DNA of 64,000 nt from positions 64,001-128,000 of the IMG/VR virus record IMGVR_UViG_3300037333_000013; one strand, written 5' to 3'. The translations under genes and the position numbers were made by a program. The stretch is from a virus. The notes under the pieces were generated by a model. The model made no database searches, had not been told where the DNA came from, and saw only the letters and a program-made list of their open reading frames with translations. This document shows, piece by piece, positions 4,368 through 57,113 of the stretch (position 1 is its first letter; every line of letters starts with the position of its first letter).

Positions 4368-5702
4368 TTACTCTTCTGAATTTGTTATCTTCTCAATCTT
4401 TTCTGTTAGTATCTTAATATTGTCATTTAGCTTCTCTAACTCTTTTACAGCAGACGTCACATCTTTCTCACTCTTTAAGTGTGCATTCCCTACACTAATA
4501 AACTTTGTTACAGGTATAGATGCGTTCTTAATTAAGTTGGTTAAGTAGATGCGTTTTGCATCATCTTCGTTCTTTACTTTGTCTGCATTAATTGTATCTT
4601 TCATTCTCCCATAGAGGGTCTTATAAAACTTCTTGTCATTTTGACGTTTCTCAATGGCTTTCTGATATGATTCGAATGACTTCTTGTTTGCAACCACCGC
4701 ATCTAGGAACCTCACTCTATCCGCACTAATCCTATCGAACTCTGCACTATGCTTTTTCAAATCATCTTTACCTACGTCTTCGAATGATATCTCTGGTATC
4801 TGTACATTCTTCATAATTGTTGCACCAACCATACGTTTGTTCAAGTAGAGTCCACGTTGTACACAAACAAGTAGTTGTATAGAAGTGTTATTTACAGATG
4901 TTAGTATTGTTGAATATTCACTCTCATGTATGATTGCTTTATGGTTAAAATCTTTCGTGATTATCTTTTCATAATCGAAAATACCATCATCGTCTAAGAA
5001 TAACATATCGCAAAGCCTTATGTAGAATTGCAAGTGAGTTGTGAGTTCTTTATAGACACTCTTGATACCTAGTATCTTTTCTACCTCTTTTGTATGTGAA
5101 ACTAACTGCACTGTCTTTGAGCTTGTTGACTTCATTAGTTGTTTATGTTGCTCTTTGAGTTGGTCAAGCTCTTCTTTTAACTCTTCTAACTTTGTCTTCT
5201 GTTCCTCATGTGTCTCTTCATTAGTCTCTGTACGTATGATTTCTTCAGCATCATTAATAGCTTCTTCTGCTTTATCAGTTGCATCTTCTACATCTTCGGA
5301 CTCTTGTACAATATCGTCAGCTGATTTGGTGGAGCCACCACCACCACCACCACCAGAGCCACCTCCGAATAGACCCATAATAAAGTCAATGATAGCTTTA
5401 AAGAAACCTGCAATAGCACCAAAGATAGCACCAAAGAATCCCTCTGCATCAAGGTTGTTCAGTTCCCTCAAGTCATCTATCTTTACAGAGTACTCTTCCA
5501 TTACAAGGTTTAAGTGTTCTCTCGCAACGAGTACTTCCTTTGATGTACCGTTATCAAGCATATCCAGAGATGTTTGAAATCCTGTATCTACTAACATCAT
5601 TAGAGATGTCATTGCATCTTGCTCTTCGCAGAGTCTATCCAACTCCTCTAGGAACTTTCTATTAGACTCTCTCTGTTTAAAATACGAAGCGTTGTAAGTC
5701 AT
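4368..5702 (-). CDS. Internal head (ejection-type) protein with propeptide
   Basis: Acidic N-terminus, LDAE/G, amphipathic GFFGAIFGAIAGFFKAIIDFIMGLF, Gly-rich linker and coiled coil, as in phiKZ head paralog families. Confidence 0.6.
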   Translation of the reverse strand: MTYNASYFKQRESNRKFLEELDRLCEEQDAMTSLMMLVDTGFQTSLDMLDNGTSKEVLVAREHLNLVMEEYSVKIDDLRELNNLDAEGFFGAIFGAIAGFFKAIIDFIMGLFGGGSGGGGGGGSTKSADDIVQESEDVEDATDKAEEAINDAEEIIRTETNEETHEEQKTKLEELKEELDQLKEQHKQLMKSTSSKTVQLVSHTKEVEKILGIKSVYKELTTHLQFYIRLCDMLFLDDDGIFDYEKIITKDFNHKAIIHESEYSTILTSVNNTSIQLLVCVQRGLYLNKRMVGATIMKNVQIPEISFEDVGKDDLKKHSAEFDRISADRVRFLDAVVANKKSFESYQKAIEKRQNDKKFYKTLYGRMKDTINADKVKNEDDAKRIYLTNLIKNASIPVTKFISVGNAHLKSEKDVTSAVKELEKLNDNIKILTEKIEKITNSEE

Positions 5703-6351
5703 TGTATTTATCCTTTCTTGGTTTTTTAGCCATCAGTAATGACGTGATGAATTGTATCATATTTACCTCACACGGTGAAAGCTCTTTACACCCCTCACCT
5801 TTAAGTAATCCATCAATCGTGTACCCTAACTGTGCTAATCCCCCCTCACCACGTATCTCCTTTAGAACGAATACCCAATCTTCAAGTGTCCAAGAGGCAT
5901 ACTTATCTTCATAAGATGCGACGGCTTTATTCAAGTCTGTCTCTACTTCATTCCCAAACACATCTATCAACAACGCTTTCTGTGCAAGCACATCTAATGC
6001 TCTAGACCTCATCATAAGGCGAGTCTTATCATCTTTAATAAAAGACATAGACTCCAAAATCTCATAGTTCTCTAATGACAGTTTTGTTTCGAGTGACCTT
6101 TTAAACTTCTCTTTAATCCGTTCGTACTTATCCACTTCTTCCTTCATCTCCATAGGAGTGAGTTCTTTTGTCCCAAGATACTCTTCAATCACCTCCTCGG
6201 TTTCTACAAAGTTTACCCTCGATTTGTTTCTCGTGTATGAACCTTTTGGTATCATTTCGAATAAGAACCCATTTGTCTGTTCATTCAGTCTCATTGCATC
6301 TGAACGAGAGATAAGACCGTTATCTCTACATGCTCTAAACATACTTCCCAC
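5677..6351 (-). CDS. Hypothetical protein, probably virion-associated
   Basis: 224-aa ORF coupled to neighbours; GLISRSDA...SYTRNKSRVNF. Confidence 0.5.
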   Translation of the reverse strand: MGSMFRACRDNGLISRSDAMRLNEQTNGFLFEMIPKGSYTRNKSRVNFVETEEVIEEYLGTKELTPMEMKEEVDKYERIKEKFKRSLETKLSLENYEILESMSFIKDDKTRLMMRSRALDVLAQKALLIDVFGNEVETDLNKAVASYEDKYASWTLEDWVFVLKEIRGEGGLAQLGYTIDGLLKGEGCKELSPCEVNMIQFITSLLMAKKPRKDKYNDLQRFVF

Positions 6352-6745
6352 CTGATACGATTGTTACAACGTCTTCCATAATAGACGGTAAGTATAGTGA
6401 TAATCTTTCTGCTTCTACAATCTCCTTGTGTCTCGCAACTCTTTCATACGACACCCCTCTCATACGCCATTCATTAAGCTTCTCAAAAATCATAATCGTC
6501 AATAAGTTGTATACTTCCGACTTATTCACATCATACCCTACTCTTTTGACGGAATCGTCTACTACATTGTTAATCGCCTGAATATCTGTTTCAGAAACAT
6601 CTCTACCATCAACATATCTACCTGCTATTAACTGCCTAATTGTCGTTGTATTGAACAGAACCAAAGACCACGCATAGTATAACACTTTTGCATTATCATT
6701 TCCCATTGACTCTAACTCGAATAATCTTAATACTTCTTTTCTCAT
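6335..6745 (-). CDS. Hypothetical protein
   Basis: 136-aa ORF in the same operon. Confidence 0.55.
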   Translation of the reverse strand: MRKEVLRLFELESMGNDNAKVLYYAWSLVLFNTTTIRQLIAGRYVDGRDVSETDIQAINNVVDDSVKRVGYDVNKSEVYNLLTIMIFEKLNEWRMRGVSYERVARHKEIVEAERLSLYLPSIMEDVVTIVSGGKYV

Positions 6746-11218: not shown

Positions 11219-11246
11219 ATACACAATGTCATATGACATTGTGTAT
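11219..11246 (-). terminator. Intrinsic terminator
   Basis: atacacaatgtc-atat-gacattgtgtat followed by a T-tract on the minus strand. Confidence 0.75.
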
Positions 11247-41665: not shown

Positions 41666-41697
41666 AATAGTCTGTGTGCATATGCACACAGACTATT
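41666..41697 (-). terminator. Intrinsic terminator
   Basis: aatagtctgtgtgc-atat-gcacacagactatt followed by a T-tract. Confidence 0.75.
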
Positions 41698-46354: not shown

Positions 46355-48565
46355 TTATACACCACATCCACCACCAGCACAACCACTATCTATAACCACA
46401 TCACCATTGTTAAATGTAGAGTAATAGAGTGAGTTCAGCCCTAGTGCATCTGCTTCATAAAGTACTTCAATCATTTTAAAGAGCTTAAACTTATCAACAT
46501 CCTCACCCTCTTTCTCGATGTCTGTCTCAAACCAATCAACGTCAACTGATATCCCTTGGTCTATAAACTCATTAATCACACCAATGGTTTTCAAGTACCT
46601 CTTGTTATCTATCTCTGTTCCGAATACATAGTACTCACTATACTTTTCAAACTCAGGAACAACAACAGGAATTGCACCATACTTTGTTGCTTTTAAGTAG
46701 AATGGGGATAGTGGTACTTTCACACCGTTCGTAGCACCGCTGATATCTCCAGATGTACCAGCTGGTGGAATAGCACTCAACGACAAGTTATATAATCCAT
46801 ACTGAATAATATCAGTGTTTAGTTTATCGATATCGTCTTCTGATACGTATTCCCAATTAAGTGTCTTGAGATACCCATCAGAGTATCTAGATTTCTCTCT
46901 AAACCATTTAGCTTCACCGTTCTCTTTTGCTAGTTTACAAGAAGCAACCAACAACCAATACTGAAAGTGTTCAATATACTCTTTTATTTTTGCATCTGCT
47001 TCATCTGTACCGAACTTCGTTTTAGACTTAGCTGTAAAGTGTGACAAGTCCGATACGCCCATACCTAAGTACCTACCATTCATCATTGTTCTTCGAATCA
47101 TCTCATGTGGATACTCTTGCATATCTATGACTCTATTTCCCATCTTCACAAGTAGTTCACACACTCGTTTTAATCTATCTAAAGAACAGAATCCCATATT
47201 AACATTACCCAATATACAAAGTGGTAACTCTGCATTTGTATCATTAATAGATTGGATAGGGGTTGTCGGTAAGAATATCTCTACACATAGATTTGTGGTT
47301 CTGATAGCGACTTTAAATGGTCCATCGTTTGCGTTGCTAATAAAGATAGGGTGTATTCTACCTGTTTCGAAGAACTCAACAGCATATCTCTCTAATAGTT
47401 CCCTTGCAGAGATTTGTTTCTTTTTGATACTCTCATTACTCTCGTAGTTCTTATACGTCTCTTCCCATAGTTCTGTGTCATAAAGGTTATCTAAAAGTAA
47501 CCTAGTCTCATGTGAGCTAAAGAGTGTCCACATCTCATCGTTTAATGCTCTCTTTAATAATAGTTTAGGAATCAAAACAGAATATGTTAAACCTTTGACA
47601 GAGTTCTCCTCTGTTGACTTATTACTCTTTAGAGTAAGAAGCTTCTCAATATCCCAGTCCCATATTGCATTAATGTTATTTGCGGAGTTGTTTCTAGCAC
47701 CCTGAGAGAATGGGTTAATCGATACTTCAAACCACCTCAATATAGGTATCTTTCCAGTATGTTTGATAGTTCCATTTGAAATAGGCATACCATCACCTCT
47801 AATGTTCGCACTTGATAGACCAATACCAGAACGTAATGCACCCATATCTGTTAAGATTGTGACAGTTGCACTTATACCTTTTTTCGTATCCCCTGTTTCA
47901 ATAACACAACACGAGGCATACCCATCTTTATTTGTTCTAAATCCTGACATAATTGGTGATGGTAAACTGATTTCAAATCTATTAAAACTGTGATACATAT
48001 CTATGATATCATCTTTATTTTTCGTATCTGAAAATGCCATCATTGCGATAAGCATATATGCCTCTTGTGGTGTCTCGATAAACCTACCAGAATCTTTATC
48101 TCCAACGAGATACTTATCTATGAATGTTCTTACGCCTATATACTTAATGTTTCTATTATAAGTATAATCAATCTCATTTCCAAAAGCGTTTATCTCTTCT
48201 TCCGTATAAAGCTCTAGTATCTTGTTTGTATAGAACCCATCTTTAATGTTTCTCTTTACAATATCTAATAGTGGCAATGGTGTTTTACCACCATAGACAG
48301 ACTTATAAACACCTATCATTAATGCTCTCGACGAAGCATATTGGAAGTCAGGATATCTCAATGATATTTTGTCTTTTAATAACGTCGATAGGGTATCTTG
48401 AATATCTCTTGTATGTATCCCACTATCCAAATGGAAAGACATCTCTTTCTTCACTTCATCGACTGGTACTTTGAGTCCATGGCAAAGGTAATCAATCATT
48501 CTGTCAATTTTCCCTCTATCGAGGAGTTGCTTCTCCCCATTTTGTTTAATTACATATTGTTGCAT
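46355..48565 (-). CDS. nrdA: Ribonucleotide reductase class Ia alpha subunit
   Basis: N-terminal ATP cone, SCC, TNLCVE, LCILG, PAGTS, SLYY and C-terminal CAGGGC. Confidence 0.95.
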   Translation of the reverse strand: MQQYVIKQNGEKQLLDRGKIDRMIDYLCHGLKVPVDEVKKEMSFHLDSGIHTRDIQDTLSTLLKDKISLRYPDFQYASSRALMIGVYKSVYGGKTPLPLLDIVKRNIKDGFYTNKILELYTEEEINAFGNEIDYTYNRNIKYIGVRTFIDKYLVGDKDSGRFIETPQEAYMLIAMMAFSDTKNKDDIIDMYHSFNRFEISLPSPIMSGFRTNKDGYASCCVIETGDTKKGISATVTILTDMGALRSGIGLSSANIRGDGMPISNGTIKHTGKIPILRWFEVSINPFSQGARNNSANNINAIWDWDIEKLLTLKSNKSTEENSVKGLTYSVLIPKLLLKRALNDEMWTLFSSHETRLLLDNLYDTELWEETYKNYESNESIKKKQISARELLERYAVEFFETGRIHPIFISNANDGPFKVAIRTTNLCVEIFLPTTPIQSINDTNAELPLCILGNVNMGFCSLDRLKRVCELLVKMGNRVIDMQEYPHEMIRRTMMNGRYLGMGVSDLSHFTAKSKTKFGTDEADAKIKEYIEHFQYWLLVASCKLAKENGEAKWFREKSRYSDGYLKTLNWEYVSEDDIDKLNTDIIQYGLYNLSLSAIPPAGTSGDISGATNGVKVPLSPFYLKATKYGAIPVVVPEFEKYSEYYVFGTEIDNKRYLKTIGVINEFIDQGISVDVDWFETDIEKEGEDVDKFKLFKMIEVLYEADALGLNSLYYSTFNNGDVVIDSGCAGGGCGV

Positions 48566-48656
48566 TATAGTCCTTTTTAGTCTGATTTAGTCAGCTAAAA
48601 TCTTTCTTAAATTATTAATGTATGCCTTAAGTGATAATAAATAATAGGATAATAAA

Positions 48657-49679
48657 ATGTTTCATGTGATTTCAATATTTAGTGGTGCCGGCGGGATGGA
48701 TTTAGGGTTTTGTGGTGGTTTTCGATACTTAGATAACTATTATAGAAAGTTGAAGTTTAAGACAACATTGATGGTTGAGAGAGACAAGGAAGCCTGTGAT
48801 ACATTAAAGAACAATAAATGGTTTAAAGATGCAGATATAAAGAATGCAGATATTACAACAATGGATAAGAAACAATATAGTTGCGATGTATTGATAGGTG
48901 GATTTCCGTGTGTAACGTTTAGTGTGGTTGGTAATAGGAATGGTGTAAATGATGATATTAATGGTAAGTTATATCTATCGTTTGTTGACTACATTACTTT
49001 TTACAAACCAAAAGTGTTTGTGGCTGAGAACGTAAAAGGAATACTAAGTTCTAATAAGGGGAGAGACAAGGAGATTATACTAAAGTCATTTGAAGATTTA
49101 GGGTATGTTGTATCAGTATATCTAGTCAACTTTGCAGATTACGGTGTCCAACAACTGAGAGAAAGAGTTTTGTTTATTGGGGTGTGTAATAACATTAAAG
49201 AGAAGTTTATTCCACCAACAAAGATAACAACAAAACATACCACATCAAGAGAAGCATTATCATCCATAAGTGATAATATTGCAAATAATGAAATTGGTAT
49301 TGTATCTGATAATGTGAAGAAGAAGTTAGAACATATTCCTGAGGGTGGTAACTTTAAAGATTTGCCTGTTCACTTATCTGTTAAAGGAATGATGTCTAAC
49401 ATATATAGAAAGTTAGACAGGAATAAACCAAGCACAACCGTCATTGCATCTGGTGGTGGTGGGACATATGGGTATCATTACGAAGAACATAGACCACTCA
49501 CAAACAGAGAACGTGCAAGGTTGCAATCGTTTCCAGATGATTTTGTATTCTATGGTACTGGAAAATCTGTACGAAGGCAAATCGGAAATGCAGTCCCGCC
49601 AGTTGGTATATTCTGGTTTGCACAAGCGATTGAAGCACTGTTATGCAAGATTGATATGAATACGAAAAAAATAAAGTAG
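48657..49679 (+). CDS. C5 cytosine DNA methyltransferase (orphan)
   Basis: FSGAGG, GGFPC, ENV, Q.RER, RERARLQSFPD, QIGNAVP. Confidence 0.92.
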   Translation: MFHVISIFSGAGGMDLGFCGGFRYLDNYYRKLKFKTTLMVERDKEACDTLKNNKWFKDADIKNADITTMDKKQYSCDVLIGGFPCVTFSVVGNRNGVNDDINGKLYLSFVDYITFYKPKVFVAENVKGILSSNKGRDKEIILKSFEDLGYVVSVYLVNFADYGVQQLRERVLFIGVCNNIKEKFIPPTKITTKHTTSREALSSISDNIANNEIGIVSDNVKKKLEHIPEGGNFKDLPVHLSVKGMMSNIYRKLDRNKPSTTVIASGGGGTYGYHYEEHRPLTNRERARLQSFPDDFVFYGTGKSVRRQIGNAVPPVGIFWFAQAIEALLCKIDMNTKKIK

Positions 49680-49690
49680 TGCCTAAGGAT

Positions 49691-51412
49691 TTACATCCCT
49701 AGGTCTTTCTTCGTTCTTTGTAGTGCCTCCATCACTACCATCTTAAACCGTCCATCTTCATCCGTTAGATGGTCTATAATCTTCTCTAACCCTATAATTC
49801 CATCTGTCGGCAATCCTCGTAATCTTAACCACTCTAGTGTGCCTGGAAGGCAGTTACCAGCACTCTTGCTTGTTTCCATCGTTACCAATGGACATGCTAA
49901 GTCAGAGACTCTCTCGAACTCTCTTTTTAGCATTGATACAGGTTTAGTATCTAACCATTTCAGGTGAGCTTCATTAGCATCACTAATAGCATAGGCAATG
50001 CGGTTAGAAGTTGAGTGGTATGTGAAGCCGTCATCGAACTCGATGACGAATCCATCATATATGTACGGTGTATTAACCCACTGGGCTTTGTGTATTTTTA
50101 GACCACCACGTACAAATGTACGTAATATCGCCGTTTCAACACCGTCAACTATAGTCTTCTCAGACTTTAACCATCCCAGTATTAATGAAGTTTCCTCAAA
50201 AATCCCTCTCTTTGATGGGTGCCTCCAGTCAGAGTCCTCTCTTAACCACCCTGGAACAAGGCATTTGTCATCATGTCTCATTCTTCTAGTCCAATAGACA
50301 GCATCATTGTAGTTACCACAAAAGTCTACAACTTTACCTTTACTGGCTTTTTGGATTGCCAGCTTATCTATTGACGCTTTGTGGTGGTCAAAGGTTCCAC
50401 GCCAATATCCCTCGCACCAAGATTGGCGATTGAGCAGGTCACCAAGCTTTAGGTTAAGCTCTTTAAGCTTAGGCATAAACTCTACCAGAGCTTGTCTTGC
50501 TCTTTGGTAGCTTGATGTCACTACGCCAGCTCTGTTAGCTAGCATAATGATTACAGCCTTTCTAGGGACTAGACTGTAGCCCATAGCATCAAGAGCAAGC
50601 TCATATGACACATTACGCCCTGTGATGCGTTTGAATGCATCAACCACTTTCCAGAGCATATTGTCTATCGCTTGTGGTGAAGCGAAGAACCCACGCTCCT
50701 TGAATAGAGTGTATTCAAAGAGAGGCTTTCCAGTATGTGGGCTGTTAGCACCACACCCTGAGTATGCCCTTCTCTGGATTTCAAACAGGGGGCTATACCC
50801 ATCAGCCATTGAAATGGCTTTGTGGAACCCAACAAACTCTCTGAGCTTTATGACTTTCATCCCTCGTTCAGAGTGTCTGCATTCAGTTCCATACTCGAAC
50901 CCAACACTACGGACGAACTCCGTTACCGTGTTGTGTTCGAAGTATGGGTATATATTCCCAATATCACCACCAGCTATTGACCAGAGCTTTCTTAACCCAT
51001 AGCTGGTATCACACTTGACAAGGTTGTCAAGTGTGATAGTTGGACGTTCGTCCAATGGGGATACCCATACGTCTCCCCACACTGGAGCTGGGTCGCTCCA
51101 GTTTTTTACTTCTTCCGAGTGCCTGCTCGGAAGAAATTCAGCTACGAATGCTCTCGCGTTCGTAGCTGAGGCAGTCTTAACTGCTTTTCTCTTTGCGTCA
51201 TAAGACGCAAAGAGAGTCTTGTTCTTTTTGGCACGTTTCCGTGCCAAATTGGCACGTCTTCGCAGACGTGCCTCCTTTAGTGCTGACTTAAAGTCAGCAC
51301 TAATTACCTCCTCTACTAGAGGAGCAGAAGCTCCTCTAGTAGAAAGTTTAGGAGAGCCTGTAGACTCTCCTAGGAATGTAGAATAAATATCTTTATTTGT
51401 AACTTGTCTCAT
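49691..51412 (-). CDS. Unknown early protein whose coding sequence is tiled with stem-loops
   Basis: Uninterrupted ~573 codons from ATG 51412 (SD AAAGG); basic N-terminus and C-terminal SAGNCLPGT.W. Confidence 0.7.
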   Translation of the reverse strand: MRQVTNKDIYSTFLGESTGSPKLSTRGASAPLVEEVISADFKSALKEARLRRRANLARKRAKKNKTLFASYDAKRKAVKTASATNARAFVAEFLPSRHSEEVKNWSDPAPVWGDVWVSPLDERPTITLDNLVKCDTSYGLRKLWSIAGGDIGNIYPYFEHNTVTEFVRSVGFEYGTECRHSERGMKVIKLREFVGFHKAISMADGYSPLFEIQRRAYSGCGANSPHTGKPLFEYTLFKERGFFASPQAIDNMLWKVVDAFKRITGRNVSYELALDAMGYSLVPRKAVIIMLANRAGVVTSSYQRARQALVEFMPKLKELNLKLGDLLNRQSWCEGYWRGTFDHHKASIDKLAIQKASKGKVVDFCGNYNDAVYWTRRMRHDDKCLVPGWLREDSDWRHPSKRGIFEETSLILGWLKSEKTIVDGVETAILRTFVRGGLKIHKAQWVNTPYIYDGFVIEFDDGFTYHSTSNRIAYAISDANEAHLKWLDTKPVSMLKREFERVSDLACPLVTMETSKSAGNCLPGTLEWLRLRGLPTDGIIGLEKIIDHLTDEDGRFKMVVMEALQRTKKDLGM

Positions 51413-51419
51413 CCGAGAC
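50891..51419. repeat. Array of consecutive, mutually unrelated inverted repeats inside the CDS
   Basis: Examples: 51312-51343 (14 bp), 51007-51038 (14 bp), 51277-51303 (12 bp), 51188-51215 (12 bp), 51110-51135 (10 bp). Confidence 0.9.
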
Positions 51420-51746
51420 CTTTCACTATTTGACCTATACGAATACCGTGTAGCTTTCACATCACGTATCTATTAATCCATCAGTGCTTTGTATAGTGTT
51501 CTCTGTAACTCCTGCCAATGGCTCGGTAGTTACTTTCTACATCGATAGATGCTTACTAACTATAACAAAGTTTACTAATAGTAGACTTCGGTCTGGCGTT
51601 ACCCTGTTTACGTGTTCATAAACGTTCATCTTCAATCACCATAGAGCAGGTGTGCCTTGGGTCATCATATCCTGAGTTATGGGATACTCTCCAGAGAAGA
51701 TATAGAGTTTATACAATAGCAGTCGCTATCCATCACACTCTTGCAT
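51413..51746 (-). ncRNA. Putative structured 5' leader or ncRNA
   Basis: ~330 nt with several hairpins between the promoter and the proposed ATG. Confidence 0.45.
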
Positions 51747-51758
51747 TAATAATATATA
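51747..51758 (-). promoter_or_regulatory. Early promoter motif
   Basis: TATATATTATTA. Confidence 0.65.
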
Positions 51759-51773
51759 AAAAAAAATAATCGT

Positions 51774-51802
51774 ATACACAACCCAACGAGTGGGCTATGT
51801 AT
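51774..51802 (-). terminator. Terminator after the helicase gene
   Basis: Minus strand ATACATAGCCCA-CTCGT-TGGGTTGTGTAT (G-U pairs) followed by a T-tract. Confidence 0.6.
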
Positions 51803-53004
51803 TAACGGTTGAAGAACGAGACAAATGGATTTTCGATTCCTACCTTTTCAGATAGTTTCTTGTTTCTCTCCTTTCTCTTTCTTTCTTTATCATTTATATT
51901 TCGTTCTTTCTTAATAAGATACCGGAGTTTCTTCTCCTCGTCATGTATCATTTTTAGAGCTTCCCTTTCCTCCCTATTCGCATAACCAACGCCATCAAGC
52001 CACGTAAGTAATTTCTTACTGTACTTGTACCCACTGTATGATGTTAAGTCATACGGGATTTCGAAGTCTTGTAACTTCAAGTCCGATATATTAATTCCTC
52101 TATATCTTTCGATTATAAACTCATCCATCTCTACTGTGAAGTGCTTTTTCTCTTTTCTACCTCTTTCGTGTAGGAAGTACCACCCCTTATCAGAGTATTG
52201 TGGTCTACCACATCTTCCAATTTTTTGTTCAATTATCTCCCACTCATCCCATTCGTTGTATTCAATAAGAACAACTTCGGCAGGAAAGTTTACCCCTTGG
52301 GCTAACACATTTGTCGAAATCATTATTTTGATTTCACCTCTTTTGAAAGCTAACTGTAACTCTAACCTTTCAGACGTTGGTGTGTCTGCCGATATAGTTG
52401 CGATATCTTCGAAGTCAATGCCTAGTAGGTTTGCATAGTACCGTCTGTGACCATCATCTGGTACATATTTACTAAATATTAGAGTTGATTTCGTCTTAGC
52501 CAACTCTTTAATCTCCTCTAAGTTTTCAAGCTGAATCTTTTTAACCTCTTTGAAAGGTTTTAATTCAATAACCTCTATATTCAGTAACTCTTTCAGCTCA
52601 TCACTTAGTGAATCTGTCGCTGTGAGCAACACAACCTCAACTCCTAAGTTCTTTGCTTTTATGATGTTATTGAGTAACATCAAACCTCTATCTTCATCAT
52701 TGATGAAGTGGCATTCATCAATGATTACTGTTTCGTATGTGTCTATTGCGTTTGGGATACTCTCATAGACACATACTTGAGAGCCTCCTTTCCCATCTTT
52801 TGAGAGGTTTATATTCACCTCTCCGGTATTGCATATGGTGAATTTATTGTAATCCACCATTATCTCGTACGCTAGCTGTCTGGTTGGGACTGCTATTAAG
52901 GTCTTTCCTTTACTCTCTTTAATAGCGGTATATGTCTTACCGCTACCTGTCCCCCCTACAAGCATTTTTGTTTTGCTATTATTCGTTAATTTATTTAATT
53001 TCAT
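51802..53004 (-). CDS. SF2 DExH helicase, Ski2/HelY/SUV3-like minimal core
   Basis: GTGSGKT, PTRQLA, DECH...DRG, TAT, TNVLAQGVNFPA, QKIGRCGR. Confidence 0.85.
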   Translation of the reverse strand: MKLNKLTNNSKTKMLVGGTGSGKTYTAIKESKGKTLIAVPTRQLAYEIMVDYNKFTICNTGEVNINLSKDGKGGSQVCVYESIPNAIDTYETVIIDECHFINDEDRGLMLLNNIIKAKNLGVEVVLLTATDSLSDELKELLNIEVIELKPFKEVKKIQLENLEEIKELAKTKSTLIFSKYVPDDGHRRYYANLLGIDFEDIATISADTPTSERLELQLAFKRGEIKIMISTNVLAQGVNFPAEVVLIEYNEWDEWEIIEQKIGRCGRPQYSDKGWYFLHERGRKEKKHFTVEMDEFIIERYRGINISDLKLQDFEIPYDLTSYSGYKYSKKLLTWLDGVGYANREEREALKMIHDEEKKLRYLIKKERNINDKERKRKERNKKLSEKVGIENPFVSFFNR

Positions 53005-53095
53005 TTGTTATCCTTTTAGGTTTACTTTATATTCTGCATTACCAGATACACGACTATGACTCTTTTAACTTAACACCGCGTGACAAAGTGTTAAC

Positions 53096-53140
53096 AGTAA
53101 TTCAATTACACCATAATAATATATAGGTAAAAAAAAAGGT
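53096..53140 (-). promoter_or_regulatory. Early promoter plus conserved leader
   Basis: Near-identical to 11174-11217. Confidence 0.7.
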
Positions 53141-53143
53141 ATG

Positions 53144-53166
53144 CACAGTAGGATTATCCTACTGTG
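53144..53166 (-). terminator. Intrinsic terminator
   Basis: cacagtagga-tta-tcctactgtg with a T9 tract on the minus strand. Confidence 0.7.
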
Positions 53167-53268
53167 TATTATGTTTGGATAAGATGAAAGTCATAAATCG
53201 TTTTCTGAACCTTCCAATAACAAGATAATTTCCTGGTAAAGTCATTCTCTTATTTAATTTAGCTTTCA

Positions 53269-53913
53269 TTAGCAATTCCTCCTATCATCTTCTGCGTCGT
53301 CGAAGTATCCAAAGTCATCCATAACCATACACGGCATAGTTAAACCGCGACCAGCGAGTGAATGTGGTCTCGCACTTATAAGTTGTAGAACATCAAACCA
53401 TAACTTATCGTTATATAGTAACGTATCACACGTATCTCTTTCATCTTCAGCTTTAATCTCCAAGTGTTCGTGATTTATGAGCTTATTGAGAAATTTGTTC
53501 AGTACCAATATACTTTCATTACTTGTTGTGTTGAAATTTAAACTACCAACCTTACCAGTAGATAAATCCAATACATATAAAGTAACAAACAAACTAAAGT
53601 TTCCGAAGATTAGTTGTTGTTTGTTCAGATTTAAGTAATATTGTTCTATGCAAAGCCAAGATTTTCGAGATATTTCTATTCCACCTGTTATAACAAGTGT
53701 TTCAAAACTTAATGGTGTGCGATGGTTTAATTCCAAGAACTTACGAACTTCAATGTTGTTTAATGGTTTTATCTTGATGTTATTCAGTTTCTTCATTATA
53801 GTTGTGATTTTATCATCTGTTGTTATTTTTGAACTTTTATCTGGACTTACCTCAAGTCCAGATAAACTGTATGTGTAATTATGTAAATCTTGTGAATTTT
53901 TAAACTCTTTCAT
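53269..53913 (-). CDS. Degenerate terminase-ATPase-like protein
   Basis: AGRGLTMPCMVMDDFGYF versus this phage's TerL VGRGLTAPTVGVDEICFI; start reassigned to MKEFK. Confidence 0.45.
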   Translation of the reverse strand: MKEFKNSQDLHNYTYSLSGLEVSPDKSSKITTDDKITTIMKKLNNIKIKPLNNIEVRKFLELNHRTPLSFETLVITGGIEISRKSWLCIEQYYLNLNKQQLIFGNFSLFVTLYVLDLSTGKVGSLNFNTTSNESILVLNKFLNKLINHEHLEIKAEDERDTCDTLLYNDKLWFDVLQLISARPHSLAGRGLTMPCMVMDDFGYFDDAEDDRRNC

Positions 53914-53945
53914 TATTTTCTCCATATAAGTGTATTTGTTAGGGT

Positions 53946-54257
53946 TCATTTACAATCCCACCAGAATACTTCCAAATAGTAATGTAATGAACATCCTTTT
54001 TGTCTTTCTGATTGTCGATAAACATCATCGTTTCTAAATTTGTCACCGAGTCTTCTGGCAGCATCATCTCTAAATGTTTCGTCGTAGATAGATGGACAAT
54101 TCTCAACCTTCTCAAATCTAATGACTCCACTGTCATCTAGATAGAGTTTCTCTGGTACCCCATCTAACTCTTTTAAGAACTCTGGATATAATTCAAATTC
54201 CTCTATAAAATCTTTTATAACGCTATCTCTTACATCATTTGATACAAACATTTTCAA
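53946..54257 (-). CDS. Hypothetical protein
   Basis: 103 aa in an early operon; start uncertain. Confidence 0.5.
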   Translation of the reverse strand: MKMFVSNDVRDSVIKDFIEEFELYPEFLKELDGVPEKLYLDDSGVIRFEKVENCPSIYDETFRDDAARRLGDKFRNDDVYRQSERQKGCSLHYYLEVFWWDCK

Positions 54258-54864
54258 TTCCTTTTACTCTAATTTTTCTAGCTAATTTGACATCGCTCGT
54301 TGTGTCAACCTCTACGAAGTAACGATAATGGTAACTCTCAAGGATACTCTTATCTTTCTTACCAAGCTCATATGATTTACCATTACCATCTTTACCATTA
54401 AAGCCTATCATATATTCAATGGGACACACAGTATCGCCATACATAAATTGTATTGCGTTGTATCTGAGTTCCTTTTCACTACGTGTTAATTTAATTATAT
54501 ATAATTCAAAACTATGTCTTATGCCTTGTTTTCCGATCACGTACTTTGTATTAATTATGTTTGAGCGGTAGATCGCATACCACATATCATCATATGTTTT
54601 ACGTTGTGTTGGTGCGACTTTGTTAAAAATTATATAATTTAAAACAAAATGTCTGTTTGGTCCTCTGTATTTTTCAATGTGTTTGTATTGTTTTTTTACA
54701 TCGTTTAAGTTATTTAAGAATGTTGAAACATGCGAATACCCACCACATATTTCAAAGTCAAACTCTTTAAGTTCCTTATCTTCAACGTGTTTATATCCAA
54801 AAGCCATTACGTGCTCAACCTCTTTTAGTGCATCTCTATATGCCTTTATCGTTCCTTTTCTCAT
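54235..54864 (-). CDS. Hypothetical early protein
   Basis: 209 aa, SD AAAGGA, promoter variant at 54933-54942. Confidence 0.6.
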   Translation of the reverse strand: MRKGTIKAYRDALKEVEHVMAFGYKHVEDKELKEFDFEICGGYSHVSTFLNNLNDVKKQYKHIEKYRGPNRHFVLNYIIFNKVAPTQRKTYDDMWYAIYRSNIINTKYVIGKQGIRHSFELYIIKLTRSEKELRYNAIQFMYGDTVCPIEYMIGFNGKDGNGKSYELGKKDKSILESYHYRYFVEVDTTSDVKLARKIRVKGIENVCIK

Positions 54865-57081: not shown

Positions 57082-57113
57082 AGTATGTATGTGGGATATC
57101 CCACATACATACT
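57082..57113 (-). terminator. Intrinsic terminator
   Basis: agtatgtatgtggg-atat-cccacatacatact followed by a T-rich tract. Confidence 0.75.

Follow-up and report, generated by a model that had tools for sequence, protein, structure and literature searches.

Hairpins on translated messages are familiar in two settings: 5' and 3' hairpins shield bacterial mRNAs from RNase E and exonucleases, and MS2-type RNA phages have coding genomes that are densely folded. The coding palindromes of Nematomorpha (hairworm) mitochondria are the closest, and the sole, published parallel that we found to the phage locus described here; they occur genome-wide, in respiratory genes that are conserved, and measure up to 284 bp, and template switching was proposed as both their maker and their keeper (2019, NAR, PMC6649704). 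Template switching can create a perfect stem in one event and introduces multi-nucleotide compensatory changes, and inversion of the loop is a described footprint of this type of mutation (Monttinen & Loytynoja 2022, PNAS, PMC8794818). The Rickettsia palindromic elements (RPE) and the translationally bypassed "byp" elements of Magnusiomyces mitochondria are, as they are cited in PMC6649704, in-frame insertions belonging to families of similar sequence.

The window analysed here is a stretch of 64,000 nt from the 165-kb contig of an uncultured jumbo phage with a multisubunit RNA polymerase, of which a beta-like protein is encoded on the contig. On the minus strand of this window, an orphan gene (Table 1) has far more base pairing in its coding sequence than its protein and codon usage require. 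The sequence-only reading of this DNA had listed a series of closely spaced inverted repeats, all of which came out of an exhaustive search for inverted repeats that are perfect (stem of at least 7, loop of at most 10); its additional shorter stems and its long imperfect one are present in the minimum free energy (MFE) fold, and its three GNRA loops (GCGA, GAAA, and GAGA) are there as well. The same scan counted 13 perfect repeats between positions 51000 and 51500, compared with 5 or fewer in every other 500-nt bin of the window, and with a stem of at least 8 there were 12 in this bin and 4 or fewer in any other bin across the 165-kb contig. The resulting array spans nucleotides 41-406 of the coding sequence.

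Table 1. Features of the hairpin gene and its surroundings, in window coordinates (L001 carries the 58%-identical homologue).
Feature	Position	Strand	Details
Orphan protein-coding gene	49691..51412	minus	573 aa; ORF and homologues
Dense perfect-hairpin array	51007..51372	minus	10-12 units; stems 8-15 bp, loops 1-10 nt, gaps 0-11 nt
Hairpin	51349-51372	minus	8 bp
Hairpin	51312-51343	minus	14 bp
Hairpin, kept in homologue	51277-51303	minus	13 bp; 8 pairs identical, 1 compensatory C-G to U-A
Hairpin	51251-51272	minus	9 bp
Hairpin	51227-51248	minus	9 bp
Hairpin, kept in homologue	51188-51215	minus	12 bp; 6 unchanged pairs, 3 two-sided changes, 1 one-sided change, 2 broken pairs
Hairpin, kept in homologue	51138-51169	minus	11+2 bp; outer stem differs, two-sided changes in 5 contiguous pairs, 0 broken
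Hairpin	51110-51135	minus	10 bp
Hairpin	51081-51102	minus	8 bp
Hairpin	51040-51055	minus	7 bp
Hairpin	51007-51038	minus	15 bp; 2-nt loop 51022-51023
Remainder of coding sequence	49691..51006	minus	weaker yet excess local structure; scattered perfect 7-9 bp hairpins
Hairpins in the remainder	50700-50718, 50804-50819, 50108-50123, 50029-50048	minus	inverted-repeat scan
Structured conserved 5' leader	51413..51746	minus	about 330 nt; no Rfam family
Early-type promoter core	51747..51758	minus	TATATATTATTA, also given as TATATATTAT core, T run before it; motif match, perfectly conserved in L001
Terminator-like hairpin and T run	51774..51802	minus	ends the upstream helicase gene
Suv3-like DEXQ-box helicase gene	51802..53004	minus	Pfam PF22527 and PF00271; directly upstream
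12-bp hairpin over helicase DECH motif	52696-52725	minus	identical sequence in L001

The frame stays open through the hairpins, as had been claimed, with no interruption in the ORF listing across the whole hairpin region. Identity to the 58%-identical homologue is 0.64, 0.63, and 0.37 at codon positions 1, 2, and 3, respectively, and every indel between the two is a multiple of 3. Taken together, these three observations clearly indicate that the hairpin region is translated and that the gene is genuine, and they rule out that the array is a 5' UTR; the values for positions 1 and 2, well above that for position 3, are a clear sign of purifying selection on the protein. An assembly artefact was also ruled out, since the hairpins are intact in independent assemblies from four samples. 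As for the gene start, the ATG at 51412 is the likely start codon, rather than 51419 or 51460; a GTG further upstream does not stay in frame when the homologue is compared.

Positions 51080-51375 folded at -173 kcal/mol, compared with -84 +/- 5 in 200 shuffles of the dinucleotide type (z -17.9), and shuffles preserving both codon usage and protein gave z -15.0 for nucleotides 1-420 of the coding sequence and z -7.3 for the remainder of the gene. Folding scores against these two types of shuffle were among the checks proposed in the sequence-only reading, and its weaker hairpins toward the stop codon are real by the last of these values. Seven control genes ranged from 0 to -3.0, save the adjacent helicase gene, at -5.9. 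Local MFE was -34.5 kcal per 100 nt in the hairpin gene and -14.7 to -20.3 in 28 other ORFs, and the gene is the most extreme outlier among 100 ORFs on the contig. The earlier statement that no other gene looks similar was nearly right within the window, where the helicase coding sequence is moderately enriched in hairpins (z -7.0 in L001), but a second clear case lies elsewhere in the contig: a MYG1-like gene, GC-rich and hairpin-rich (z -9.3), behind the same promoter motif. Clear structure outliers are thus two of the 100 ORFs, with the helicase weakly a third. The raised GC noted for the orphan gene was likewise found, at 0.445 against about 0.35 for the genome.

Relatives of the orphan protein comprise P0002, which is syntenic and 58% identical, and 13 distant homologues. 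Excess local structure was present in all 11 homologues tested, with z from -4.9 to -31, whereas neighbouring control genes ranged from 0 to -3.4; the genomes carrying the family are unrelated, with GC from 29% to 56%, and in all family members the GC of the gene exceeds that of its flanks. On these comparisons, the excess structure is heritable and belongs to the orphan protein family as a whole. Four members have 25, 13, 8, and 6 perfect hairpins (stem of at least 8) per gene, for an expectation of 0.1-0.4 from mononucleotide shuffles, and in one homologue about 38% of the gene is within perfect stems of at least 8 bp. The distant homologue L004 has 22-25 perfect hairpins in 1.6 kb, at positions non-homologous to those of the window gene, and hairpins in relatives are spread over whole ORFs. 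Members L007 (z -14 to -21) and L006 have few perfect stems yet strong structure, so the perfect-only pattern is not family-wide. Neither the gene nor P0006 had a relative among 50,697 phage records by blastn and tblastn, scans of viral contigs with a peptide pattern and a leader DNA pattern gave no match, and a metagenome scan returned two diverged lineages only, next to near-identical copies.

No family was found for the protein or its 14 homologues in Pfam, PHROG, NCBIfam, or PADLOC, and a sequence-profile search of the PDB with the 573-aa protein had no match. Two AlphaFold models (pLDDT 68 and 74) compared with Foldseek-PDB, VIA-align wide, and the ESM Atlas gave trivial long-helix matches only (Z of at most 6), and a feature search of the ESM Atlas returned unnamed viral clusters only; no RNA-binding fold or family was detectable by these family and fold searches. 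The core of the protein is conserved across homologues, and the densest part of the array falls in its least constrained, low-pLDDT N-terminal extension, poorly conserved and partly basic. A long Lys/Arg-rich helix at residues 39-93 of the AlphaFold model, encoded by the hairpin region, is missing from the distant homologues.

Compared with the hairworm palindromes, the phage gene shows the same in-frame perfect inverted repeats inside an intact ORF with both arms translated, the same all-or-none character, with perfect repeats common and imperfect ones rare (perfect versus interrupted stems of at least 8 bp: 11 versus 1 in the window gene, 22 versus 2 in L004), and the same gain and loss between relatives. 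Unlike them, the phage stems are of 8-17 bp and tiled back to back, and they are confined to two or three genes of the phage and travel with one protein family instead of being genome-wide. The phage hairpins also differ in their GC enrichment and sense-strand bias, which point to selection at the RNA level. The statement in the sequence-only reading that no such system had been described overlooked these palindromes (PMC6649704) as well as the genesis of hairpins by template switching (PMC8794818), the latter studied in rRNA and microRNA genes, whereas the phage case is an array in a protein-coding ORF.

The RPE and byp elements, as far as they are described in PMC6649704, resemble the phage gene in placing hairpin-forming sequence, GC-richer than an AT-rich genome, inside coding genes. 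Unlike those families, the phage hairpins are mutually unrelated, with no shared repeat except two matches of 13-14 nt between neighbouring arms, and the gene aligns codon for codon with that of L001 save one 15-nt indel. This absence of shared repeats and of insertions argues against an in-frame palindromic mobile element (RPE, byp, or MITE-like), and a captured structured-RNA element, as had been suggested, is likewise not borne out, also given that a search of Rfam 15 over positions 49000-52500 had best E values of 0.07-0.9, far under the gathering scores. The array hairpins have neither a common sequence or loop motif nor iterons. As in the mRNA stabilisers and RNA phages, these are local hairpins on a translated message, of the type thought to govern decay and ribosome access. 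However, the known stabilisers are single terminal hairpins and this ORF has dozens of perfect short ones, and RNA-phage structures are imperfect, G.U-rich, and long-range, whereas here they are perfect and short, in the ORF of a DNA phage.

Three helices persist in the 58%-identical homologue with 9 two-sided changes in total, in two lineages only, whose third codon positions have diverged to saturation (Table 1); the counterpart of 51138-51169 is a perfect 15-bp stem at L001 6228-6261. Of 15 helices, about 12 have no counterpart there. The pairing expected in homologues by the sequence-only reading was found for three helices, through compensatory change, and was absent for the rest, so that by this alignment a few hairpins persist and most turn over quickly. 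The five contiguous two-sided changes in the helix at 51138-51169 fit copying of one arm from the other. In addition, the 2-nt loop at 51022-51023 (minus strand) is CC in this genome but GG in L013 and L014, relatives with 95% identity, an exact inversion on an otherwise near-identical background, like those described for template-switch hairpins (PMC8794818). Template switching is thus the likely source of the hairpins, as far as these alignments indicate. A low divergence of the 5' third relative to L013 was considered as a sign of constraint and discarded, as the two genomes are a recombination mosaic, mostly identical.

Upstream of the gene, the leader has 74% nucleotide identity to that of L001, compared with 37-42% at third codon positions of the orphan gene, and RNAalifold proposed 87 pairs for it, 15 of them with a compensatory change, on what are effectively two sequences. 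Early genes of phiKZ/AR9-like jumbo phages have an extended, AT-rich promoter that recurs across the genome; for the early virion RNA polymerase (vRNAP) of AR9 it has the consensus AAATATATATTAT-(6N)-G (PMC5312081), with which the T run and TATATATTATTA before the leader agree. There are 23 copies of the TATATATTATTA motif in the contig (at most one mismatch), 21 of them on the minus strand and mostly just upstream of genes, behind a terminator hairpin. The gene therefore looks early, judging from this virion RNA polymerase promoter motif and the conserved leader, which lends indirect support to the earlier proposal of an early mRNA. About 19 other units behind the same motif are not hairpin-rich; thus, being an early mRNA does not by itself explain the trait. 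Within the array, no intrinsic terminator or attenuator was found on the transcribed strand; terminator-like matches occur only on the plus (antisense) strand, because the linkers of the sense strand are A-rich.

With regard to the molecule on which selection could act, the core array is strand-symmetric, scoring z -17.9 when folded as RNA and -17.8 when its plus strand is folded as DNA, and its stems are purely Watson-Crick, with abrupt ends flanked by random mismatches, a pattern equally expected from copying at the DNA level without RNA function. The difference between sense and antisense energies of this gene alone was discarded as proof of RNA over DNA, as its value falls inside the range of ordinary genes. 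Across the family, the sense RNA is favoured: its excess stabilisation exceeded that of the antisense in nine of nine genes (ratio 1.10-1.69). In-stem interruptions in the family were G.U in 7 cases, A.C in 1, and other in 2, while the remainder of the genome had 4, 5, and 16, respectively; the G.U counts are small (7 against 1).

The earlier claim of selection for nucleic-acid structure on top of coding is supported by a structure that exceeds the codon-preserving shuffles, is found family-wide, and includes three helices kept past third-position saturation. We give about an even chance to selection at the mRNA level, acting on hairpins made by template switching, in an early structured message. 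During replication, one arm would be copied from the other by template switching, so that perfect, sharply bounded stems are made and repaired; an early promoter of the virion-polymerase type would then yield a single highly structured RNA, with the conserved leader followed by the hairpin-tiled ORF, and selection would act on the folded mRNA. In its purpose, the weakest part of this proposal, the hairpins may keep the message double-stranded between ribosomes, insulating it from attack specific to single strands (decay of RNase E type, RNA-guided nucleases), setting translation rate and lifetime, or both, that is, a presumed role as armour or in expression control. A broader version seems rather doubtful to us: that, in jumbo phages that have RNA polymerases of their own, a small class of early messages (the orphan, the MYG1-like exonuclease and, more weakly, the Suv3-like helicase) are dual-function RNAs, with ORFs that template switching has built into perfect-hairpin arrays, the arrays being selected as armour against RNA-targeting immunity or host RNases, or the substrate of a phage helicase-exonuclease module. 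Against selection on the mRNA stands the unlikely, though quite conceivable, reading of the hairpins as non-adaptive, "parasitic" coding palindromes that arise by template switching or arm conversion in DNA, have no RNA function, and persist because conversion keeps the arms identical and deletion would break the ORF. The perfect, abruptly ending stems and the rarity of interrupted ones, the exact loop inversion between near-identical relatives, the fast turnover between lineages, the strand symmetry of the core array, and the location of its densest part in the least constrained extension of the protein all agree with such an origin, for which the same argument was made in the hairworm mitochondrial genes (PMC6649704). 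However, a genome-wide quirk should hit many genes and not two or three in 100 ORFs, and it would hardly track one protein family through unrelated genomes of such different GC. Moreover, members with few perfect stems, such as L007, keep strong excess structure, the sense strand is favoured throughout with G.U exceeding A.C inside stems, and three helices outlast the saturation of synonymous sites.

The remaining alternatives assign the hairpins to a binding partner or to the DNA. In a cis-acting RNA-protein module, which we regard as quite improbable, they would serve the encoded protein or the Suv3-like helicase, possibly together with the MYG1-like exonuclease, as sites to bind or unwind, and would autoregulate the translation or decay of a few phage messages. 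The helicase gene lies immediately upstream in both diverged lineages, with synteny in L001 and L013, two of the structure-rich trio of genes belong to RNA-metabolism families, the orphan protein has its Lys/Arg-rich helix, and the trait moves with the gene family; yet this helix is itself encoded by hairpins and absent from distant homologues, no RNA-binding fold or family came out of the searches, the hairpins lack a common sequence or loop motif, and no helicase is annotated within 4 kb upstream of the L004 gene, the hairpin-richest homologue. It is very unlikely that the transcript, as an abundant early RNA, serves as a decoy or sponge, the former suggested in the sequence-only reading, titrating a host duplex-RNA factor (RNase III or a structured-RNA-sensing defence enzyme), with coding as a secondary role: 8-15 bp is a short stem length for RNase III, the protein is under clear purifying selection with a core conserved across the family, and no link of the gene to a defence system came out of the analysis, even if many independent perfect A-form helices of 9-15 bp on one transcript, with an early-promoter motif at the gene, are what a decoy would present. 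Finally, origins within genes are known in phages, as in the case of the lambda ori in gene O, and hairpins that fold equally well as single-stranded DNA of either strand could form a DNA-level element in the gene (a replication origin, a primosome site, a cruciform, or single-strand hairpin promoters of N4 type). Neither iterons nor a shared motif exist, though, the cumulative GC skew has no turning point at the array, the trait covers whole ORFs in relatives at non-homologous sites and follows the gene into unrelated genomes, and the sense-strand bias suits RNA better, all of which makes this last alternative highly improbable.

The hairpin density in this working ORF is an extreme instance of two codes in one sequence, and excess structure as a property of a protein family allows selection to be told from a mutational quirk more clearly than the hairworm mitochondria allow. 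If the dual-function reading is true, RNA structure would be a heritable trait that moves with a gene between phages. In nucleus-forming phages, the mRNA is exposed in the cytoplasm, a known weak point; if structure protects early messages, the trait would bear on this exposed mRNA and on RNA-targeting CRISPR tools. In addition, the family may be used to study, in a natural setting, how template switching gives rise to new RNA structure, and it offers models from nature to those who design stable mRNAs.

Some further features of the folded genes were recorded. A preference of the stems for a codon phase was considered and discarded, as the combined counts of 14, 7, and 12 are not significant. 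Two others speak for the sense RNA: adenine makes up 43-44% of the unpaired positions, and pairing around the start codon (-20 to +20) averages 0.46, compared with 0.62 for the ORF.

Perfect inverted repeats (stems of at least 7 bp, loops of at most 10 nt) numbered 13 in 51000–51500 and five or fewer in any other 500-nt bin of the window; for stems of at least 8 bp, the same bin held 12, and every other bin of the whole contig at most four. All the stems of 7 bp or more listed in the sequence-only reading were recovered at their positions, and the shorter ones were seen in the MFE fold. The excess of structure that this reading proposed was confirmed with two kinds of shuffle. Segment 51080–51375 folded at −173 kcal/mol versus −84 ± 5 in 200 dinucleotide shuffles (z −17.9), and under synonymous-codon shuffling, which holds protein and codon usage constant, z was −15.0 for nt 1–420 of the coding sequence and −7.3 for the remainder. 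Seven control genes gave codon-preserving values of 0 to −3.0, and the adjacent helicase −5.9. The local folding energy of the hairpin-tiled gene was −34.5 kcal per 100 nt, versus −14.7 to −20.3 in the window's 28 other long ORFs, and when structure was regressed on GC it was the strongest outlier of 100 contig ORFs.

The hairpins are mutually unrelated, which excludes copies of one element and, together with the lack of an insertion pattern relative to the homologue, mobile palindromic insertions. An assembly artefact was also discarded, as other samples, assembled independently, show the array hairpins intact, and no Rfam family matched. Terminators were ruled out on the sense strand; on the plus (antisense) strand, several hairpins within 51081–51216 score as intrinsic terminators (8 terminator-like sites versus 1.7 expected), a consequence of A-rich linkers on the sense strand, and these might stop antisense transcription or be a by-product. 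In addition, two adjacent hairpins (51227–51272, minus strand) have the arm GGCACG/CGTGCC in common, so that a third, mutually exclusive hairpin (51240–51256) can form between them in what is, as predicted from the sequence, a switch-like arrangement.

The hairpin region is coding: its conservation is that of a translated sequence under weaker constraint. The syntenic homologue P0002 (58% identity, locus L001) aligns with the protein over its full length, and codons 1–140 show the expected pattern, with identities of 0.64, 0.63, and 0.37 at codon positions 1, 2, and 3 and indels that are, without exception, multiples of three. Translation probably begins at the ATG at 51412 (573 aa), since the sole diverged homologue does not keep the GTG further upstream in frame and MRQV begins both proteins. 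Distant homologues align at residues 180–315 and 451–570 only; thus, the densest part of the array falls in a lineage-specific N-terminal extension, modelled as disordered segments and a single long basic helix.

The main new result is that excess structure is a trait of the gene family. None of the 13 distant homologues carries a known domain, and DNA of ten homologues was examined. The gene of P0006, at locus L004, with a phage RNA-polymerase beta gene as its neighbour, contains 25 perfect hairpins with stems of 8–17 bp, 22 of them non-overlapping, in 1581 nt; they cover 38% of the gene, even the conserved YPAL motif, and the locus has only five more in its remaining 8 kb. The remaining members have 8, 6, 4, 3, 3, 3, 2, 1, and 0 hairpins, with 0.1–0.4 expected from mononucleotide shuffles. 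Under codon-preserving shuffles, every member tested showed excess structure (z −4.9 to −31), including the one at L007, which has few perfect stems yet reaches −14 to −21, whereas non-helicase neighbours ranged from +0.1 to −3.4. Each member lies 3–12 GC points above its own flanks, in genomes spanning 29–56% GC, and the extra GC is located in paired positions. Three members (L007, L008, and L009) are on very short metagenomic contigs of 1.75–1.95 kb with little else present; hairpin-rich DNA may break assemblies.

Conservation of the pairing itself in the 58% homologue was partial: three helices are kept (51277–51303, 51188–51215, and 51138–51169), with nine two-sided changes, and about 12 are lineage-specific. 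At this distance, third codon positions have reached saturation, so the three shared helices have probably been maintained. In helix 51138–51169, a run of five contiguous pairs has been exchanged without any being broken, and L001 has in its place a perfect 15-bp stem that differs in sequence. The near-identical relatives L013 and L014 (95% overall) are recombination mosaics, mostly identical to the window; over 46640–54460, L013 alternates long identical stretches with patches diverged by 10–20% (e.g., 49678–50276, 52226–52375, and 52526–52825). Only five differences fall in the array, two leading to U.G pairs, one to an A.C mismatch, and two adjacent in the loop of a 15-bp hairpin, CC in the window and GG in both relatives, an exact loop inversion. 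Loop inversion, perfect stems made in one step, and multi-base compensation are published footprints of template switching (PMC8794818), which we therefore take as the mutational source; switching would make the stems, and selection would decide which stay.

The array alone cannot settle whether RNA or DNA is the relevant level, since its core is strand-symmetric (z −17.9 for the sense RNA, −17.8 for plus-strand DNA), its stems are pure Watson–Crick blocks that end abruptly, with mismatches at random in the flanks, and the sense-minus-antisense energy of the gene is within the normal range. Across the family, the excess over strand-matched shuffles is larger on the sense strand in nine of nine genes (ratio 1.10–1.69); single interruptions within stems are G.U in seven cases, A.C in one, and other in two, versus 4, 5, and 16 in the rest of the genome; A makes up 43–44% of unpaired bases; and mean pairing is 0.46 in the ribosome-binding window versus 0.62 in the ORF. 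Although the numbers are modest, these data favour selection on the sense transcript, and a DNA-level element is accordingly very improbable.

The sequence-only interpretation thus stands in part, its core proposal of selection for structure on top of coding being supported: a translated gene carries a second layer of local base pairing that is family-wide, partly conserved, and biased to the sense strand. We propose that template switching creates and repairs the stems and that selection on the mRNA retains them. The folding would hold the message double-stranded between ribosomes, the weakest part of the proposal, and could thereby guard it against RNA-guided nucleases or single-strand-specific decay, determine how long it lasts and how fast it is translated, or both. 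Taken as a whole, this scheme seems to us evenly balanced between right and wrong. The main rival, rather unlikely, is that the hairpins are non-adaptive coding palindromes maintained by conversion between arms, the explanation put forward for hairworm mitochondria (PMC6649704); against it speak the family-specificity of the trait, the structure of members without perfect stems, and the strand bias. The coding palindromes of Nematomorpha are the nearest published phenomenon, being likewise perfect, in-frame, translated, all-or-none, and dynamic, but they are genome-wide and much longer. A cis-acting module in which the helicase or the gene's own protein takes part is a more doubtful candidate, and a decoy RNA an improbable one. 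The literature searched gave no account of phage ORFs tiled with hairpins, which does not prove their absence.

The IMG/VR contig (164.7 kb, estimated completeness 62%) encodes a multisubunit RNA-polymerase beta-like protein and is therefore a jumbo phage of the kind carrying its own RNA polymerases; sequence searches found no cultured relatives. Along the transcribed strand, a Suv3-like DEXQ helicase is followed by a 390-nt gap, the hairpin-tiled gene, a C5-cytosine methyltransferase on the opposite strand, and ribonucleotide reductase. The methyltransferase is also present in L013 and is missing at the corresponding place in L001 (7764–7834).

Features of the hairpin-tiled gene and its genome (window coordinates unless stated)
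Feature	Position	Strand	Basis or remark
Hairpin-tiled ORF, longest start	49691–51460	−	ORF call
C5-cytosine methyltransferase gene	48657–49679	+	sits between hairpin-tiled gene and ribonucleotide reductase
Early-type promoter motif, T run + TATATATTATTA	51747–51758	−	motif recurrence, AR9 consensus match
Promoter cassette, examples	11204, 24485, 30705, 33246, 41652, 44627, 51758, 53125, 59519	−	motif scan
5′ leader, ~330 nt	51413–51746; L001 5672–6000	−	conservation and consensus fold
Zero-spacer palindromes, examples	contig 75219–75246, 105666–105697, 121082–121113 = window 11219–11246, 41666–41697, 57082–57113
MYG1-like exonuclease gene (PF03690)	contig 5425–6525 (outside window); L019 626–1726	−	same early-type promoter motif
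Suv3-like helicase gene	51802–53004; L001 3847–5052	−	adjoins hairpin-tiled gene

The gap contains the helicase terminator, the promoter motif, and the leader. The contig has 23 copies of the motif, 21 of them on the minus strand, mostly behind a terminator hairpin and ahead of genes, in a cassette composed of a hairpin ending in GTGTAT, the T run, ACC, and TATATATTATTA; a common transcript start, tGGTGTAATTGAAT, often comes next. The motif agrees with the early virion-polymerase promoter consensus of AR9, AAATATATATTAT-(6N)-G; the corresponding promoters of phiKZ-related phages are likewise extended, AT-rich, and highly conserved (PMC5312081). It is perfectly conserved in L001, and a ATATATTAT-(6N)-G match was seen by eye upstream of the L004 family gene. 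The leader shows 74% nucleotide identity between the two lineages, versus 37–42% at third codon positions of the gene, and a consensus fold of 87 pairs, 15 of them compensatory. It matched no Rfam family and may act independently as a regulatory or functional RNA. Leader and ORF together look like one heavily structured RNA, predicted to be early.

The sequence-only reading saw nothing similar in other genes, which is true of most of them; however, the helicase shows a moderate excess of structure in both lineages (z −5.9 in the window, −7.0 in L001), and the MYG1-like gene, outside the window, is a clear second case (GC 0.43, about 12 perfect hairpins of at least 7 bp, codon-preserving z −9.3, second-strongest outlier among the 100 ORFs). 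Among the 21 promoter-motif units, it is the only other clearly structure-rich and GC-rich one; thus, being early is insufficient for the trait. Both genes are members of RNA-metabolism families, a link that may be meaningful or fortuitous. In the helicase, a 12-bp perfect hairpin (52696–52725), identical in sequence in L001, lies exactly over the DECH motif (peptide IIDECHFIND). Finally, some 15 perfect palindromes of 26–32 bp with zero spacer are scattered over the contig; those checked lie about 15 nt upstream of an early-type promoter core and so look like terminator stems of the promoter cassette.
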